Shown: one piece after another, positions 4,505 through 59,027 of the stretch
Numbering within the stretch: position 1 is the stretch's first letter
How the letters are laid out: every line of letters begins with the position of its first letter
Source: Nitrosopumilaceae archaeon
Lineage (GTDB): Archaea; Thermoproteota; Nitrososphaeria; Nitrososphaerales; Nitrosopumilaceae
Assembly: GCA_965208905.1 (NCBI GenBank)
Contig: OZ242365.1
Coordinates: 1,280,001 to 1,344,000 of the forward strand
Reading direction: 5' to 3'
Length of the DNA: 64,000 bases
The notes under the pieces: generated by a model
Told to the model about the DNA's origin: nothing
What the model saw: only the letters and a program-made list of their open reading frames with translations
The model's database searches: none
Translations under genes and position numbers: made by a program

Positions 4505-5806
4505 ATGAATTACAGAAAACAGAGAGGCATATTGATAACAAAACAAAAGAATCAGATTCGTCAAGTAGATGATTCTACATACGAGGTGTGTTCACAGACT
4601 GAACCTGGCATCAAGTATACGTTGACACGTACATCCCGTAGTTGGGATTGTAACTGTCCTGATGATGCGATATATTGCAAGCATGCGTATGCTCTGGAAG
4701 AACACCTTGGCATGAAACCACGCGTAGACAGGGGCCGTTTAATACACGAGATGGGAGGTCAGGTGGAGTGCATATCACTAGACCACTATCTAGTCAAATC
4801 ACAGAGTATTGATGAATCATACGAAGTACGTGATTTTGGTAGTGGTTGGATATGTTCATGTCCAGACCACATACATACAGGGAGTACATGCAAACACATT
4901 CAAGCCGTACAGTGGAGCAATAGAGAACGGCGTGTAATAGAAGAACCAAGGCAGATTTTATGTCTGCGCTGCGGTTCATCCGACATTATACAGAAGGGGG
5001 TGCGCAGCGGCAATCACCGGTTCCAATGCAAATCATGCGGCAAATACTTTACAGACAATCTTGGATTTGAGGGGCGGCGTTCCGCCCCAGAGTACATTAC
5101 AGTCGCTGTAGAACTGGTGTATGCGGGACTGTCCATACGAAAAACCGTAAAGGCACTACACTCAATATACTGCAAGGTTGGCCGCTCTACCATACATCGC
5201 TGGGCAGACCAGTACGGCCATATGATGGATGAATATCTTGATGGGATAACTCCACTGGTGGGGGAGGAGTGGCGTACCGACGAAATATACGTAAAGATAC
5301 GCGGGAAGCGAAAGTACCTGTTCGCGATGCTGGATTCAGAGACAAGATATTGGATTGCCAGACAGGTTGCCACACACAAAGGTACTGATGATGTACGACC
5401 GATGTTTAAGCAGGCCAAAGACATAACAGGTAAAATTCCATCCAAACTGATATCTGATGGTGCATCCAACTTTGCCGAGGCTCACAAAGATGAGTACGCT
5501 CCCAAGAACTACCTGTGGAAGAGTTCCGTGCATGAGTCACACATACGCATGGATGGCGATATACACAACAACCAGATGGAGTCTTTCAATGGAAATACCA
5601 TACGGCTGCGCGAGAAGATTGTACGCGGTTTGAAGAAGGAGGATGCGGCACTGCTTGCAGGTTTGAAGGTGTATCATAACCATGTAAGGCCACATCTGGG
5701 ACTGCCTGACGGACAGACTCCAGGCGAGGCATCAGGTATACATGTTGATGGTGTAAACAAGATACTCACGATTATACGCGCTGCTGCCAAGGCGCGTAAC
5801 AACTAG
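4505..5806 (+). CDS. IS6-like DDE transposase with two N-terminal SWIM fingers and a Zn ribbon
   Basis: SWIM CNC..CKH and CSC..CKH; CLRC..CKSC ribbon; HTH; DDE motifs WRTDE, ISDG, NNQMES; paralog of 57783-59027. Confidence 0.9.
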   Translation: MNYRKQRGILITKQKNQIRQVDDSTYEVCSQTEPGIKYTLTRTSRSWDCNCPDDAIYCKHAYALEEHLGMKPRVDRGRLIHEMGGQVECISLDHYLVKSQSIDESYEVRDFGSGWICSCPDHIHTGSTCKHIQAVQWSNRERRVIEEPRQILCLRCGSSDIIQKGVRSGNHRFQCKSCGKYFTDNLGFEGRRSAPEYITVAVELVYAGLSIRKTVKALHSIYCKVGRSTIHRWADQYGHMMDEYLDGITPLVGEEWRTDEIYVKIRGKRKYLFAMLDSETRYWIARQVATHKGTDDVRPMFKQAKDITGKIPSKLISDGASNFAEAHKDEYAPKNYLWKSSVHESHIRMDGDIHNNQMESFNGNTIRLREKIVRGLKKEDAALLAGLKVYHNHVRPHLGLPDGQTPGEASGIHVDGVNKILTIIRAAAKARNN

Positions 5807-27694: not shown

Positions 27695-28112
27695 TGCGTA
27701 TAAAGCAATATTGTAATTATATATTTGTTTATCGTATCAACATTTGTTGGTGCAAAAGTCGTACTTATCAGAGTGACCCACCACAGTATATTGTCTCTTA
27801 TTGGTGCTTTTGGCTCCGCCTATGCCTAGCTTGAAGATCAATTTTATTTTAGTATATTTAAGGTAAGACCTGAAAATTTTTCTGATTTAGGATGTCAATG
27901 AGTATATCCTCACACTATGTGTATGCCTATCTAAATCAGAAGTGATTGCAGTCCAAGTCTGCACCTGAGGTCTGCGTAAGTTGTAACAATGATGGTTGTG
28001 ACCTGACATATGATATCTTAATTATGTGAGCAGTTGGATTATTCGTATCTTAGATTTGAAGTGTACGCGATACAACTACAAATTCAAATAATGGAATATG
28101 TCATGCAAAACA

Positions 28113-29508
28113 ATGTCAGTTAGATATGACGAGGACTCTTTGGGGAAGGTAGAGGTGCCCAGTGAGGCATACTATGGAGCATTCACTGCTAGGGCTTTAA
28201 AACAGTACCAAGTAACAGGCCTATAGGGCTTTAAAACAGTACCAAGTAACAGGCCATGCATCACATCCAGCACTGAGAGACTCGTTTGTCATGATAAAAC
28301 GATCTGCTGCAATAGCAAATATGCGTACCAACTCCTTGGATACTGTAAAGGGGGATGCCATCACTCAAGCATGTGATGATATACTGAATGGCAATCTAAC
28401 TGAGTGGTTTGTTGTAGATATGATAAACTCTGGAGCCGGTACTGCATTTAATATGAATACAAATGAGGTCATTGCAAATGCAGCCCTGCGCATATTGGGC
28501 AAAAACTTAGGTGAGTATCAGCATTTACATCCAAACGATCATGTAAACATGTCTCAGTCAAGCAACGATACATATCCCACCGCTATGCATATGTCAATTT
28601 TGATGGGTGCAAACAAGCTGATACCTGAACTGAATCTACTGATAAGATCCCTACAAAGTAAGGCTGAAGAGTTCAGCAAATTTCGTAAGATAGGACGGAC
28701 TCACCTTATGGATGCATTACCACTTACACTGGGCGATGAGTTTGCAGCATATGTTGTTGCAGTGACCAAGTGTACTAAATTGGTACAATATACAATAAAA
28801 GAGTTGTACCCGGTGGCGCTAGGTGGGACGGCAGTGGGTAGTGGGGCCAATACACCAGATGGTTATCGCAGTATTGTGATATCTGAGTTGGCAAACATAT
28901 CATCATTGCCTCTGGTTATGGAACCCGATATGCGACATGGACTACAGAGTCGGTTTGCCGCAGCCGCATTCTCTGGAGCACTACGGGGCCTGGCAGCTGA
29001 GTTGGGCAAGATATCCAACGATATACGGCTTATGGCATCTGGACCCATGGCAGGCCTCTCGGAGATTGGAATTCCTGCTGTACATGCAGGTTCATCCATA
29101 ATGCCCGGCAAGGTAAACCCGTCACTGGCAGAATGTATGAATATGATATGCTACAATGTTATGGGAAACGATGCATCCGTATCGATGGCTGCAGGCGCCG
29201 GTCAGTTTGAGTTGAATGTAATGCTACCAGGTATGCTAAAGTGCATCTTGGAATCTACAGACATGTTGTATAGGTTTATCCCTGTATTTCGTGCCAATTT
29301 AATAGAGGGCTTGACAGCAAATACTGCGCGATTACAGAGTGATATGCAGCGCAGCCCAGTTATAGTGACTCTTTTGGCACCTAAAATAGGCTACCAAAAA
29401 TCTGCACAATTATACAAAGAGTCTCTGGCTACCGGCAAGACAATACGCGACTTGGTAATATCTTTGAATTTAATGACCGCCGATGAGGTGGATGAGTTAC
29501 TATCCTGA
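28113..29508 (+). pseudogene. fumC: Class II fumarase/aspartase, frameshifted by a 34-bp duplication
   Basis: N-terminus MSVRYDEDSLGKVEVPSEAYYG from 28113 stops at TAG 28224-26; remainder (HPNDHVN, GRTH, GSSIMPGKVNP) is in another frame; removing 34 bp restores one frame. Confidence 0.85.
28190..28255. repeat. 32-bp direct repeat separated by TA
   Basis: TAGGGCTTTAAAACAGTACCAAGTAACAGGCC at 28190-28221 and 28224-28255. Confidence 0.95.
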
Positions 29509-30770
29509 TGGCTCGCATATACGTTGAAGCTCATGGATGTGCCGCCAGTTATTCGGATTCTGAGATGATATCAGGTATATTGTCTGGAGCGGGTCATACA
29601 CTTACCGGTGATAGGAGTGAATCTGACATAGGCGTGTTGGTCACATGCTCGGTCAAGGATGCGACTGCGAACAAGATGATACATCGAATTAAGACCATGG
29701 GAGATCGACCTTTGGTGGTGGCAGGATGTATGCCCAAAGCAGAACAAAAGACTGTGGAGAAGTTTGCAGACAATGCTAGTTTAATGGGCCCTAACTCTAT
29801 AGGGAGTACTCTTGATGTGGTGAATGATACACTAGTTGGTATACGTCGAGAGGAGCTGAATGTTGATAAATCTGACAAACTTACTCTTCCCAGAGTACGA
29901 ATAAATCAGTCCATATCCATAGTGCAGATAGCAACAGGATGCATGAGCGACTGCTCATTCTGTCAAACTAAATTGGCCAAGGGCGACATATCCAGTCATC
30001 GTATAGGTGATATAGTTAGGCAAGTACGTCATGATGTACAGGATGGCTGTAAAGAGATATGGTTGAGCAGTACAGATAATGGGTGCTACGGATTAGACAT
30101 AGGTACTGACCTGCCTAGCCTGATCAATGCTATAGTGAAGATAGATGGTGATTTTATGATACGTGTGGGAATGATGAACCCAATGTATATGCCTCGTATA
30201 CGGGACTCTTTGTTAAAGTCGTATGAGTCAGAGAAAGTGTACAAATTTTTACACCTACCCGTACAGAGTGGAAGTGATGATACGCTGATGGGAATGCGTC
30301 GTGGCCATACCAGTAAAACCTTTCGTAGTGTAGTTGAACAGTTCCGACGTAAGTTTCCACGCAGTACCATCTCCACAGACATAATAGTGGGATTTCCCAC
30401 AGAGACCGATGAGGATTTTGCTGGCACTGTATCATTAATCAAAGATATGCGTCCAGATATGGTAAATCTGTCTCGGTATGCTGCAAGACCCGGCACCGAA
30501 GCTGCACAGATGACCCAAATCAGTCCGGATATCGTAAAACAGAGGAGTCGCACACTACATGACATTACTAGGAGGCTATCTCTAGAGTCAAACAAACAAT
30601 GGATTGGATGGCAAGGCGAGGTGTTATTCTCGGAGATGTCCTCAGGCGGAGTACGAGGGCGCAACAAAGCGTACAGACCCATACATGTTGATGGAGCAGA
30701 ACTATCTGTATGCCAGAATGTTTTGGTAAATAATGCCACCGAACATGGCTTAGCTGGGATAATTGTATAA
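29508..30770 (+). CDS. tRNA methylthiotransferase (MiaB/e-MtaB family)
   Basis: HGC..TCSV..GC UPF0004 domain, CMSDCSFC, HLPVQSG, TRAM-like C-terminus. Confidence 0.92.
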   Translation: MARIYVEAHGCAASYSDSEMISGILSGAGHTLTGDRSESDIGVLVTCSVKDATANKMIHRIKTMGDRPLVVAGCMPKAEQKTVEKFADNASLMGPNSIGSTLDVVNDTLVGIRREELNVDKSDKLTLPRVRINQSISIVQIATGCMSDCSFCQTKLAKGDISSHRIGDIVRQVRHDVQDGCKEIWLSSTDNGCYGLDIGTDLPSLINAIVKIDGDFMIRVGMMNPMYMPRIRDSLLKSYESEKVYKFLHLPVQSGSDDTLMGMRRGHTSKTFRSVVEQFRRKFPRSTISTDIIVGFPTETDEDFAGTVSLIKDMRPDMVNLSRYAARPGTEAAQMTQISPDIVKQRSRTLHDITRRLSLESNKQWIGWQGEVLFSEMSSGGVRGRNKAYRPIHVDGAELSVCQNVLVNNATEHGLAGIIV

Positions 30771-30836
30771 AATACACTATTCTCAAAGATCACAAGATGG
30801 ATTGGCATAATAATTATGCCTTCTTAAGCTTCTGTA

Positions 30837-30990
30837 GGGAATTATGTACAAAAGTACACAGCCTCGGCTGTACACTCATGCCTTTTCTGACGACCTCGTT
30901 GTATAGAACGGAGCATGGCGGGTGTTGGCTTGTAGCCCTTCTTATGCCCCGGCCGTCTAAGGACGACGTTCCCCGCCGCCCGATGCAAAA
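30837..30990 (-). ncRNA. Putative omega/reRNA scaffold overlapping the tnpB 3' end
   Basis: GC-rich non-domain ORF tail with hairpins, incl. GTGTACAGC-CGAG-GCTGTGTAC (30875-30854); position expected for TnpB RNAs; boundaries inferred. Confidence 0.5.
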
Positions 30991-32197
30991 TATTCCAGGC
31001 GGCATTGACATCCGCGTGAAACACTCTGGTACAGTTAGTGCAAATGAATTTGTCGCACGTGATACGCGACTCCGAGTCTACGTGACCACACATATGGCAC
31101 GTCTGGTTTGTATATTTGGCCATCACCCCGCATAGCGGAATTCCCTCCCTCTCGCATCGCTGCGCCAACTTCCGTAGAAACTCACCAAGTCTATTCTCCC
31201 GCATGGAGCGATTCATGTGTCTTTTATAATTCCCGCCATGTGTAGTCATGCCCTGTATAGATAATATCTCGGCTATGATGGCATCCGCGCCTTGTACGAT
31301 ACACGATACGGTCTGATTTATGGTGTTTACGGCGATGCCATCAGCCTTCCTGTATAGTTGCTTTATTTGGTCGTTCAATATGTGCCACTTCCGGCCATGC
31401 CGTACCTTGTGGTCGCGCAGGCTCTTGAGAGCGTCTATCTCCCGCAGGATTTCTCTATGGCGTGTGTTGTGTATTATTACATTGCCGTTTGTATCGACCG
31501 TAACTGCAAGGTGCTTGCCTCCCACATCAACACCCCGTACTATACCCGTATTACGGTGCGGTTTTACCGGTATATGCACTGCAATATGCAATTCAAACAT
31601 GTGGTCTGACGGCTTGGTGTATTTGGTTACCTTCTTGGTGACATCGACTATCTTGAATGACCGCATATCCCATGATACGTCAATGGGCTTGGCGGTCTTT
31701 ACTGTGCCGTATCCGGGGATATGTATGGTATGCTCATCCTTCCGTACAGGCGGTGTAACGGAACTAAGTATAATGCGGCCGTCTTTACGGCGGTATGGCG
31801 CGTGGTTGGAGTTGTCATCCATAACTCTTCTACATGCAACCGAGGCATCCTGTATGGCGCCGCGTCCAAATACCATAGGTAAGTCAGATATCCAATCTGA
31901 CTCTGCGCGCCACTCCGTAAGTTGTTTGTACATGCCGTACTTTAGTTTCCTCTTTGATGGCCCAAAGTCATATACCTGGTAGTCATCTTCCAGTGTAGCT
32001 GATGTAAAACCATCCAGTGTGTTTGGTAGTTTGAATGGCTGTAGTATATATACCACCACCCTCTCCATATATTCGCCGCCAAACATATACTCTGATACGG
32101 CCCTATTGTACACATACCGTACCACATGGCCCATGCGGTGCGCCCAATCTGCAAACAACTCATCCCTGTATAGCGGTACCCTGACTATCCGTATCAT
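30842..32197 (-). CDS. tnpB: TnpB-family RNA-guided endonuclease
   Basis: RYVYN helix; RuvC-I GVDVG, RuvC-II IIAEIL, Zn finger CHMC..CTNC, RuvC-III HADVNAAWNI. Confidence 0.93.
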   Translation of the reverse strand: MIRIVRVPLYRDELFADWAHRMGHVVRYVYNRAVSEYMFGGEYMERVVVYILQPFKLPNTLDGFTSATLEDDYQVYDFGPSKRKLKYGMYKQLTEWRAESDWISDLPMVFGRGAIQDASVACRRVMDDNSNHAPYRRKDGRIILSSVTPPVRKDEHTIHIPGYGTVKTAKPIDVSWDMRSFKIVDVTKKVTKYTKPSDHMFELHIAVHIPVKPHRNTGIVRGVDVGGKHLAVTVDTNGNVIIHNTRHREILREIDALKSLRDHKVRHGRKWHILNDQIKQLYRKADGIAVNTINQTVSCIVQGADAIIAEILSIQGMTTHGGNYKRHMNRSMRENRLGEFLRKLAQRCEREGIPLCGVMAKYTNQTCHMCGHVDSESRITCDKFICTNCTRVFHADVNAAWNILHRAAGNVVLRRPGHKKGYKPTPAMLRSIQRGRQKRHECTAEAVYFCT

Positions 32198-32494
32198 AAT
32201 GTGTTATACGGTATATGGTATTTAAGGGGATTGATGCAGTCACGAAATCTGTGTTGGGTCAGCATTGACTCTCAAAACAGAGGCTGTGTACTTTTGTATG
32301 TAATTCCCCTTCTGTACTATCTACGTGAGTTGGCAACCACTGTAACATGTGTGAGTTGGGGCCGTAGTCGGAGGATCCGATCTTTGTAAGAATGAAAAAG
32401 GGCAAAGGGTGATGGTTAGACTGCCAACCTTGTGGCGACCTGTATGGGGGTCATCCACTTGTTGGTTCCTTCGATGGTTATCCCGGCGGCCTAG

Positions 32495-57782: not shown

Positions 57783-59027
57783 TTATGCTGTGGATTTAGT
57801 TGCGGCTTGAATGAGTGTCATCCATTTGTTGTTACCTTCAACGGTAATACCTGCGGCCTCTGCTGGGGTTATTTGATTCGGTAATCCCAAGTGGGGTTTT
57901 ACAAAATTGTGATATAATCGCAGTCCAGAGATTATGCCAGAGTCTTCACGCTTAAGGCCACGGCACACTTTCTCTCTATGTCGCAGTGTTGCTCCGTTGA
58001 ATGATTCCATTTGGTTGTTATGATGTATGCCGTCAAACGCCACATCATGAATGTGTTCTGTATCTTTGTGTAGGAAGTTCTTTGCCTTGTATTGTTGCTT
58101 CCATGCATGATGGAAGTTAGCCGCTTTATCACTGATTAATGTGGTTGGGACTTTGCCTGTTACTTTTTTGGCTTGTTTAAACATGGGTGCCACATCATCA
58201 TTGCCCTTGTGTTCTGCTACCATCTTGGCTATCCAGAAGCGTGTCTCACTGTCTAGCATGGCGAATAGGTACTTTCTATTACCCTTGATTTTCAGATATA
58301 ACTCATCGGTACGCCATTGTTCACCAACTTGGGGTTTAATCTTGTCAACGAAGGTTTCCATCAGTTCTGCGTATTGTTTGCCCCATCGTTGTATGGTAGT
58401 GTGTACTACTGTAATACCAACCATCTTGAGTGTATTGGCCACCTTCCGTGAGGATAATCCACTAAACAGGAGATCTACTGCTTGAGTGATATGTTCAGGT
58501 GATGCCTGCTTCTTTTCAAATCCTAGGTTTTGGATAAATCTCCTGCCACACGTCCTGCACCCGAACTGTTGTTTGCCACGCTTAATACCCTTCTTGATAA
58601 TATCAGTTGAGTCACAGAATTTGCATTTTGTAAGGTCAACAACCTTGATAGTAGTGGTAACTTCCTCTTGGACGGCTGCCCTCATTCGCTTGCTAATTTC
58701 GATTGCATGAGCGTGCTTGCATACAACACCCCTGTACATTGAATCGGGACAGGAACAAACCCATCCTGATTCTGTATGTATCACCTCATAGACTTTACTA
58801 GAGGATTGACTTCTTACAGTATAGGTTGTATCATCTATTCTGGTTATCTGATTAGGCTTGCCTGCTATCTGCGCACCCCGTGTGATTCTAGCCGCCTGAC
58901 CGGGGCTATGGTTCTTATGGGGTGATAAGATAGTAGGCTCAGAGTGCAATTTGCTCTTCATTGGGATGGTCGAGATCCCTCTGACTTTCTTTTCATCATC
59001 GCCATACTTTGTTATTGTTTTATTCAT
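57783..59027 (-). CDS. IS6-like DDE transposase with SWIM finger and Zn ribbon
   Basis: CSCPD..CKH, CKFC..CRTC, WRTDE, ISDK, NNQMES. Confidence 0.9.
   Translation of the reverse strand: MNKTITKYGDDEKKVRGISTIPMKSKLHSEPTILSPHKNHSPGQAARITRGAQIAGKPNQITRIDDTTYTVRSQSSSKVYEVIHTESGWVCSCPDSMYRGVVCKHAHAIEISKRMRAAVQEEVTTTIKVVDLTKCKFCDSTDIIKKGIKRGKQQFGCRTCGRRFIQNLGFEKKQASPEHITQAVDLLFSGLSSRKVANTLKMVGITVVHTTIQRWGKQYAELMETFVDKIKPQVGEQWRTDELYLKIKGNRKYLFAMLDSETRFWIAKMVAEHKGNDDVAPMFKQAKKVTGKVPTTLISDKAANFHHAWKQQYKAKNFLHKDTEHIHDVAFDGIHHNNQMESFNGATLRHREKVCRGLKREDSGIISGLRLYHNFVKPHLGLPNQITPAEAAGITVEGNNKWMTLIQAATKSTA

Follow-up and report, generated by a model that had tools for sequence, protein, structure and literature searches.

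A TnpB-family gene in a Nitrosopumilaceae archaeon is carried between the terminal inverted repeats (TIRs) of a small transposable element at positions 30837-32308 of the window, the whole 64,000-nucleotide (nt) stretch analyzed here (GenBank contig OZ242365.1, positions 1,280,001 to 1,344,000). Positions are those of the window unless the source genome (G000) or another genome is named. We put the probability at roughly 80% that this vehicle is a non-autonomous derivative of the IS1595 family of insertion sequences (IS), with a functional tnpB in place of the transposase gene, and that it is moved in trans. As read from the sequences, the mover is very probably an IS1595-family DDE transposase from another element that binds the shared TIRs.

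The unit is 1472 bp long, and direct sequence reading and a repeat finder place it between the same TIRs and the same target-site duplication (TSD). The TIR arms are 29 nt each and 27/29 (93%) complementary. One lies on the tnpB-3' side (30837-30865) and the other on the tnpB-5' side (32280-32308), and the two are identical over ~24 nt. Each arm directly abuts one copy of the TSD, a perfect 8-bp repeat that reads CTTCTGTA on the plus strand at 30829-30836 and again at 32309-32316. The element terminus is GGGAATTAT..., and the TIR pattern occurs at just two places in the 64-kb window when ≤3 mismatches are allowed, compared with 0 matches in 100 shuffles. The tnpB gene (30842-32197, minus strand) encodes 451 amino acids (aa) and is the only gene and the one long open reading frame (ORF) of the unit. 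The TIR arm on the tnpB-3' side contains the stop codon of the gene (30842-30844), 5 nt short of the outer element end, and also encodes the last TnpB residues, VYFCT. The protein has an intact RuvC D-E-D triad and a CxxC...CxxC zinc finger. The sequence-only reading of this locus had described the unit in these terms, with its dimensions, its repeats, a stop codon in the TIR and a sole tnpB with RuvC triad and zinc finger; the repeat finder agrees on the boundaries, and the ORF list, Pfam and alignment agree on the gene.

The element is a real transposable element that has spread to about 15 copies. The source genome is a single contig of 2.21 Mb (99.6% complete) and contains 15 near-full-length copies that are 79-88% identical to the window copy. 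In all 15, homology extends as far as the TIR ends and no further. A genome-wide search gave 31 occurrences of the TIR and 0 of a reversed control. Both ends were found for 14 copies; 10 of these have perfect 8-bp TSDs, all of them different, and one has a 7/8 match. The stop codon is 5 nt from the element end in 15/15 copies, and the 450/451-aa ORF is intact in 14/15. Eight copies were compared with the sister genome G005, where the flanks are ~97-98% identical. Empty sites were present for 6/8, and in these the two stretches of flank share exactly 8 nt, which leaves a single 8-mer. Five of the six are clean, and the site of copy e102k is clean for ~50 nt on one side only. The site of copy e339k is empty in a further genome, G008. 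Further copies with the same ends and different TSDs, and empty sites with a single 8-mer, were the observations that the sequence-only reading had named as support for its proposal, and both were found.

The same set of copies bears on whether an unrelated miniature inverted-repeat transposable element, to which the TIR and TSD would belong, encloses an IS200/IS605-type (IS1341-like) tnpB element. That arrangement draws on the general expectation that prokaryotic TnpBs ride IS605 or IS607 elements. It is scarcely credible here. In each copy the homology ends with the TIR and the ORF terminates within it; the same ORF arrangement is seen in a second and a third TnpB family. No such TIR pair was seen with the inner part but without tnpB, and the short derivatives that turned up are internally deleted forms of the tnpB element. 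The genome also has neither a Y1 transposase nor a serine recombinase. PF01797 (Y1_Tnp) had 0 matches in the genome, in a search whose control was positive in 6/14 known genomes, and PF00239 (Resolvase, serine recombinase) likewise had 0 matches in the genome; 65 TnpB-like frames are present in the same genome. The TIRs, the TSDs, the single 8-mer in empty sites and the missing Y1 TnpA place the element outside the IS200/IS605 group (IS1341 group). The TIRs, the TSDs and the missing serine recombinase place it outside IS607. In this respect the vehicle is of the TIR/TSD, DDE type that the sequence-only reading had assigned.

Several derivatives accompany the full-length copies. One copy (G000:C1:1972621-1975198) is 2578 bp long, with ~1.1 kb inserted in tnpB, and keeps a perfect TSD, AAAAGATA. 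Three remnants of ~165-205 nt (G000:C1:2197132-2197327, 1493807-1494012 and 1694379-1694542) hold just the tnpB 3' end, which is the candidate omega-RNA region discussed below, and the adjoining TIR. A second TnpB element, F2 (1639 bp, 470 aa), is present as two identical copies (G000:C1:1455264-1456902 and 2049469-2051107). The 8-mer GGAAATTA stands on the 5' side of one F2 copy and on the 3' side of the other. It seems that the F2 flanks were exchanged by recombination between the copies, or that the assembly was mis-threaded there.

Transposases with matching ends were identified in the same genome. Four elements of 2.1-2.8 kb have the 13 terminal nt of the TIR, GGGAATTATATAC, as their boundaries; their ends read GGGAATTATA(TAC), and each is flanked by an 8-bp TSD that is perfect and AT-rich. 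The 313-aa protein of these elements is an IS1595-family transposase (PF12762, 2.8e-40), and its IS1595 zinc ribbon scored just below the cut-off (24.8 versus 25.4 bits). An autonomous IS1595 element is also present in the sister genome G005 (PF12762, 5e-36). The TIR of the window family (F1) matches the G005 IS1595 ends at 20-21/24 nt, and the F2 TIR matches them at 29/36 nt. The sequence-only reading had looked to autonomous elements with the same terminus to name the transposase, and the ones found name the IS1595 family. The window element has the 8-bp TSD and the termini of DDE_Tnp_IS1595 elements and no transposase of its own. A scan of one genome per species gave 80 loci with TnpB relatives, and no IS1595 transposase lies ≤3 kb from any of them. 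The element is non-autonomous because tnpB is its only gene and because no IS1595 transposase stands near the related TnpB loci.

Some of the IS1595 elements carry passengers. One of the four in the source genome (G000:C1:1770047-1772736) has DNA methyltransferase-like ORFs, as judged from translations only, and methyltransferase-like ORFs are also present in L077 and L078 of G005. L077 additionally holds a nested IS630-type (DDE_3) gene. One IS1595 derivative has retained its methylase-like ORFs and lost the transposase.

The sequence-only reading had inferred capture of tnpB by a DDE transposon family and mobilization in trans, with the SWIM-IS6 enzymes of this genome as candidate mobilizers. 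The first part is supported by the non-autonomous structure and the ends shared with IS1595 elements, and the second is not, since the matching autonomous elements encode IS1595 proteins. Thirteen IS6-type transposase matches above the Pfam cut-off are present in the genome, and two PF13610 matches lie in the window itself (5267-5689, plus strand, and 57897-58319, minus strand). IS6 elements make 8-bp TSDs too, and ends of the GGCACTG, GGGCTG and GGTTCC types flank other TnpB families of this genome. The terminus GGGAATTATATAC belongs to the PF12762 IS1595 elements and not to the IS6-like classes, and the window element does not have the GGTTCTG/GGCACTG-type terminus of PF13610 elements. An IS6-like mobilizer is therefore very improbable for this family; for different TnpB families, both here and in a related metagenome-assembled genome (MAG), the IS6 idea does apply.

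It is likewise most unlikely that TnpB moves the element itself, with no DDE transposase involved. A bacterial genome (G041, Arenicellales) lends that idea some weight, with four TnpB elements of this kind, three of them with perfect TSDs, and no PF12762 match. Against it, TnpB is not known as anything but an RNA-guided nuclease, with matches to PDB structures in agreement, and a DDE enzyme is indicated by the staggered 8-bp duplications and by TIRs in common with elements that encode a transposase.

A few observations sit less comfortably with an IS1595-borne element moved in trans, and the Arenicellales genome without a PF12762 match is one of them. The IS1595 elements of the source genome match the F1 TIR at 15-17/24 nt, with just 13 contiguous terminal nt, and the best-matching autonomous element sits in the sister genome G005. 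The window copy itself has no clean empty site: its left flank is 98% identical in G005, and synteny breaks at the site. DNA contigs from four runs of two public studies all carry the window insertion, with no empty joint. Copy e33k also gave no clean empty site versus G005. In the public data, position 32314 in the right TSD copy has A for G in runs X5 and X6, and the TSD is 7/8 in that population.

The association recurs in other genomes. The same TIR was found in 5/41 genomes, a set that comprises the source genome, itself one of the five, and 40 relatives. In G015, which belongs to a different genus, these ends enclose a third TnpB family (434-550 aa), and the TIR there likewise encodes the protein C terminus (...VYFCI) and the stop codon. 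The closest named relatives among the 80 loci are on Cenarchaeum sp. MAG contigs (62-64% identity) and in a Nitrosopumilus sp. MAG (38%). Three bacterial MAGs, assigned to Ca. Porisulfidus, Arenicellales and Caldilineaceae, likewise have TnpB between IS1595-type ends with perfect 8-bp TSDs. Potential partners reside in some bacteria: in bacterial genome G043, two IS1595 elements have ~22-26 nt of TIR in common with co-resident TnpB elements, and in the Caldilineaceae MAG (G042) a co-resident PF12762 element matches the TIR of a TnpB element over ~30 nt. The names of the carriers (Cenarchaeum-like archaea and the Caldilineaceae, Arenicellales and Ca. Porisulfidus MAGs), and the names alone, suggest a shared sponge-associated habitat.

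A TIR-plus-TSD screen was passed by 5 of 48 loci (ORF ≥330 aa). The TnpB relatives without TIRs have a Y1_Tnp neighbor in 6 loci and a Resolvase neighbor in 1, among 101 flanking ORFs at the 48 loci. The screen does not find TIRs everywhere, because only 5/48 loci passed and others adjoin Y1_Tnp or Resolvase genes. None of 80 viral loci with TnpB relatives has paired IS1595-type ends; the best identity of the viral proteins is 31-36% over >100 matched residues and up to 46% over shorter stretches. The Caldilineaceae MAG (~3.8 Mb) has >100 TnpB-profile matches, and most of 20 sampled lie between IS1595-type ends. An Acidimicrobiales MAG (L124) has a 1256-bp TnpB element with a GGTAGTGGGT... TIR (17/18), a perfect 8-bp TSD and a G before the TSD.

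Other TnpB families use other ends. A systematic scan of the source genome found the TIR classes GGTTCCTCCCGCAAG..., (T)GGGCTG... and GGCACTGTCAAATC... around further TnpB families, with 8-bp TSDs. There are at least four such families, for example at G000 28035-29550, 239554-241169, 376973-378455 and 768095-769464, with GGTTCC, GGGCTG and GGCACTG ends, and all of their proteins have the TNB domain above the cut-off. A Nitrosopumilus sp. MAG (G044, L232-L246) has many TnpB elements of ~380-400 aa (open frames ~402) between IS6-like GGTTCTGTGAAG... ends, with perfect 8-bp TSDs in 7/14. The 4 nt before the TSD in these G044 elements are TTTG, ATTG, ATTA or AATA.

A quick maximum-likelihood tree was built from 70 proteins, consisting of 25 selected rows and 45/48 outgroup ORFs (3 duplicates omitted). 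The archaeal TnpBs with TIRs and TSDs form one clade of 13, with a Shimodaira-Hasegawa-like approximate likelihood-ratio (SH-aLRT) support of 99, and this clade mixes IS1595-type and IS6-like ends. Within this clade, the GGGCTG and GGCACTG families are the sister group of F2/F4 (SH-aLRT 100). The IS1595-type TnpBs of bacteria group apart, in a clade of their own (SH-aLRT 97-99). Rows L223 and L224 are on very long branches and are not interpretable.

The TnpB protein has the domain and the catalytic residues of its family. Pfam assigns it to Cas12f1-like_TNB (PF07282) at 8e-16 (58.4 bits, cut-off 26.3), and OrfB_IS605 scored 20.5 bits, under the cut-off of 30.5. An alignment of 7 sequences from 3 divergent families shows that the catalytic residues D224 (in GVDVG), E310 and D396 (in HADVNAA) are invariant, as are the zinc-finger residues C367, C370, C386 and C389. 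A profile of these proteins matches solved TnpB structures, including ISDra2 TnpB (8h1j, 8bf8/8exa) at E ~4e-21. The best profile match is the designed TnpB-like nuclease 9yyg, in which the GVD.G, vEdL and D.NaA.NI motifs are aligned; this is the displayed alignment, and the ISDra2 match is taken from the match table. The ratio of nonsynonymous to synonymous substitution rates (dN/dS) was calculated for the 14 intact tnpB genes and has a median of 0.21 and a range of 0.10-0.32 (91 pairs). With pairwise dN/dS this low, purifying selection acts on the TnpB ORF of each mobile copy, and the catalytic residues are kept.

These data bear directly on whether TnpB might be an inert or domesticated passenger, such as a TldR-like regulator, with no nuclease role in the spread of the element. 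The nuclease role is itself read from sequence, and covariation support for the RNA fold described below is weak, which leaves room for that view. It is nonetheless improbable, since three families share an invariant RuvC triad and zinc finger, selection acts on each mobile copy with 14/15 paralogs intact, and the gene is multicopy and mobile and not fixed at one locus.

The insertion sites carry a one-sided sequence mark. Sixty-three elements with IS1595-type ends from 7 genomes were oriented with tnpB on the plus strand; the 42/63 with a TSD of ≤1 mismatch were kept and the other 21 were dropped. The base directly 5' of the TSD on the tnpB-5' side (-1) is G in 36/42. The mirror +1 position is C in 9/42 (Fisher 3.6e-9), and the genomic G frequency is 0.229. 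A G at -1 is present in 13/13 elements of the window family F1, 5/5 of the G015 families, 8/8 of the Caldilineaceae family and 3/3 from Arenicellales. It is present in 0/2 elements of F5 and 1/4 of G044a, which have the same TIR class. The four bases before the TSD in F1 are A-T-N-G, and the window copy has ATAG (32317-32320, minus strand), immediately 5' of the TSD on the tnpB strand. This tetranucleotide is the candidate transposon-associated motif (TAM) of the window element. The G already stands in 5/6 empty sites.

The main rival to the TAM part of the proposal is that the one-sided G is a target preference of the IS1595 transposition complex, or another property of the vehicle, and is unrelated to TnpB guide logic. 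Two non-sister TnpB clades, one archaeal and one bacterial, that have only the IS1595-type ends in common both show the G, a pattern equally compatible with a vehicle property and with a convergent TAM. Among eight elements that share these ends but lack TnpB, 7/16 sides have an outward G, which is above the genomic 0.229, with no consistent side. Two further observations count against a TAM. Copy e339k (G000:C1:339644-341109) has a G when occupied and a T in both empty sites (L257 in G005, L258 in G008), and in the comparison with L257 the 60 nt on each side differ by this G/T alone. Nor does the TAM-plus-target interval show an excess of substitutions between occupied and empty alleles (11/120, versus 8/120 and 10/120 in neighboring intervals). 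The symmetry of the element speaks for the TAM: a symmetric transpososome acting on TIRs that are identical over ~24 nt should give a mirror C, and this was seen in 9/42. Autonomous IS1595 copies show no consistent side, and F5 and G044a have the same TIR class without the G. On balance a vehicle property is the unlikelier source of the G, although it carries appreciable weight.

Two further ideas about the G and its surroundings were considered and were not supported. An arms race would leave extra TAM or target substitutions in empty alleles, and the 11/120 versus 8/120 and 10/120 comparison shows no such excess. Inheritance of a G-ending TAM from IS607-type ancestors finds no support in the neighbors of the TIR-less relatives, which are Y1_Tnp at 6 loci and Resolvase at 1.

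The 3' end of tnpB may also encode an RNA. The candidate omega-RNA scaffold region is the last 250 nt on the tnpB strand (30837-31086, minus strand), and its terminal hairpin ends 11 nt before the element end. The consensus fold of these 250 nt has an energy of -78 kcal/mol and 68 pairs. The synonymous rate (dS) drops to 0.29-0.37 in the last 100 codons. The stable fold, the paired cells (97.9%) and the lowered 3' dS fit an omega-RNA scaffold that would finish at the element end. Covariation argues less well for it, since compensatory change was found in 4 pairs and 38/500 shuffles reach that. No Rfam family matched in the tnpB 3' region, and a look for RNA runs that contain the locus found none. 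A sub-threshold match to a hepatitis delta virus (HDV)-like ribozyme at 30942-31003 (minus strand; 22 bits versus a gathering threshold of 44, E 0.26) is probably due to chance. Upstream of the gene, a TATA-like box (TTAAATA, 32219-32225, minus strand) was read from the sequence and is centered ~25 nt before the ATG. This position would fit a leaderless archaeal transcript.

A homing mechanism can be proposed from these parts. An omega-RNA scaffold would be encoded by the last ~200-250 nt of tnpB together with the TIR. Transcription that leaves the element would append a guide made of the TSD and the next ~8 nt of flank. The predicted guide-encoding flank at the window copy is 30821-30836 (minus strand), the TSD copy plus the next 8 nt past the tnpB 3' end, which reads TACAGAAG then CTTAAGAA; it is predicted because the tnpB 3' end and TIR abut the flank. 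The G-ending motif, ATAG here, that directly precedes the other TSD copy would be the TAM. Only in the absence of the element would TAM and target be contiguous, either on an empty sister chromosome or in a donor site rejoined at the 8-bp repeats after excision. TnpB would then cut the empty site, and recombination with an occupied copy would restore the element. The occupied locus would be spared. Its TAM-side copy matches the guide over just 8 nt, and at the opposite side, where the match is complete, the bases in front of it are ...TCCC; for these reasons neither site should be cut. The retention logic follows a model that Meers et al. reportedly put forward in 2023 for IS605. Taken jointly, the omega-RNA scaffold, the TSD/flank guide, the G-ending TAM and empty-site cutting stand at even odds in our estimation.

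A broader evolutionary reading is more tentative, and we give it somewhat less than an even chance. According to it, an archaeal lineage keeps its whole TnpB complement without Y1 or serine transposases and switches between IS1595-type and IS6-type ends; the design also arose in, or spread to, bacteria; and TnpB homing has been refitted to a TSD-making DDE vehicle with the TAM one TSD-length away.

The accepted role of TnpB is the rescue of scarlessly excising IS605 and IS607 elements. The locus described here is a natural test case for a different setting, with a multicopy, selected and probably active TnpB on IS1595 ends, together with matched autonomous partner elements, empty sites and a candidate TAM and guide. 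RNA-guided homing combined with a TSD-making transposase becomes directly testable. If the proposal is true, nothing but an empty or precisely resealed site brings TAM and guide target together, and homing has been adapted to a DDE vehicle. The genome illustrates that dozens of TnpBs can be kept without any TnpA, and it adds compact archaeal TnpBs (~450 aa), possibly with a short G-ending TAM.

Among known systems, the Fanzor proteins of eukaryotic DDE transposons, reportedly described by Bao and Jurka in 2013 and Saito et al. in 2023, are the eukaryotic counterpart. Both they and the window protein are TnpB-family nucleases between the TIRs of TSD-making DDE transposons. Fanzors differ in being eukaryotic or viral and in having longer proteins, and the relationship considered between them and the window protein is the shared TnpB family. 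The IS200/IS605 elements of the IS1341 group and ISDra2 TnpB share the protein family with the window element, along with a presumed 3' omega-RNA and a presumed flank-derived guide. IS200/IS605 elements are described as having no TIRs or TSDs, subterminal hairpins, a Y1 TnpA and a TAM directly beside the left end (PMC4810608 and PMC13565253). In contrast, the window element has TIRs and TSDs, its genome has no Y1 enzyme, and its candidate TAM lies an 8-bp TSD away from the element.

The IS1595 family (ISfinder; DDE_Tnp_IS1595 / Zn_ribbon_IS1595) agrees with the window element in GG(G) termini, 8-bp TSDs, AT-rich targets and TIRs. Some of its members have passenger genes, which here are DNA methyltransferase-like. 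The window element differs from these IS in having no transposase and a single gene, tnpB, whose C terminus and stop codon are encoded by the TIR.

The sequence-only reading had presented the locus as a prokaryotic parallel to Fanzor, which overstated its novelty in light of the DDE-associated TnpB branches described in passages of Altae-Tran et al. (2023, PNAS, PMC10691335). Those passages describe six branches (DDE-1 to DDE-6) whose elements have inverted terminal repeats, together with solo TnpBs flanked by the same ends, some of these inferred to be mobilized in trans; IS630 is named in the main text. A 2026 review (PMC13565253) lists ISL2, IS630 and IS1031, calls prokaryotic TnpB-DDE associations rare and argues that TnpB retention logic fits DDE transposons poorly. 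No earlier description of an IS1595- or IS6-borne TnpB was found in the literature searched, where matching papers were judged by title and the opening of the abstract, with the limit that the supplements of PMC10691335 may list such partners. The Altae-Tran branches and the window element are alike in having a prokaryotic TnpB within inverted terminal repeats and the tnpB 3' end near the transposon end. As far as the main-text passages go, IS1595 and IS6 are not named there, and a TAM one TSD-length away and empty sites do not appear. The IS1595-borne TnpB is a variant of the known DDE-TnpB association, and what is new is the fuller natural evidence and a testable prediction of TAM and guide.

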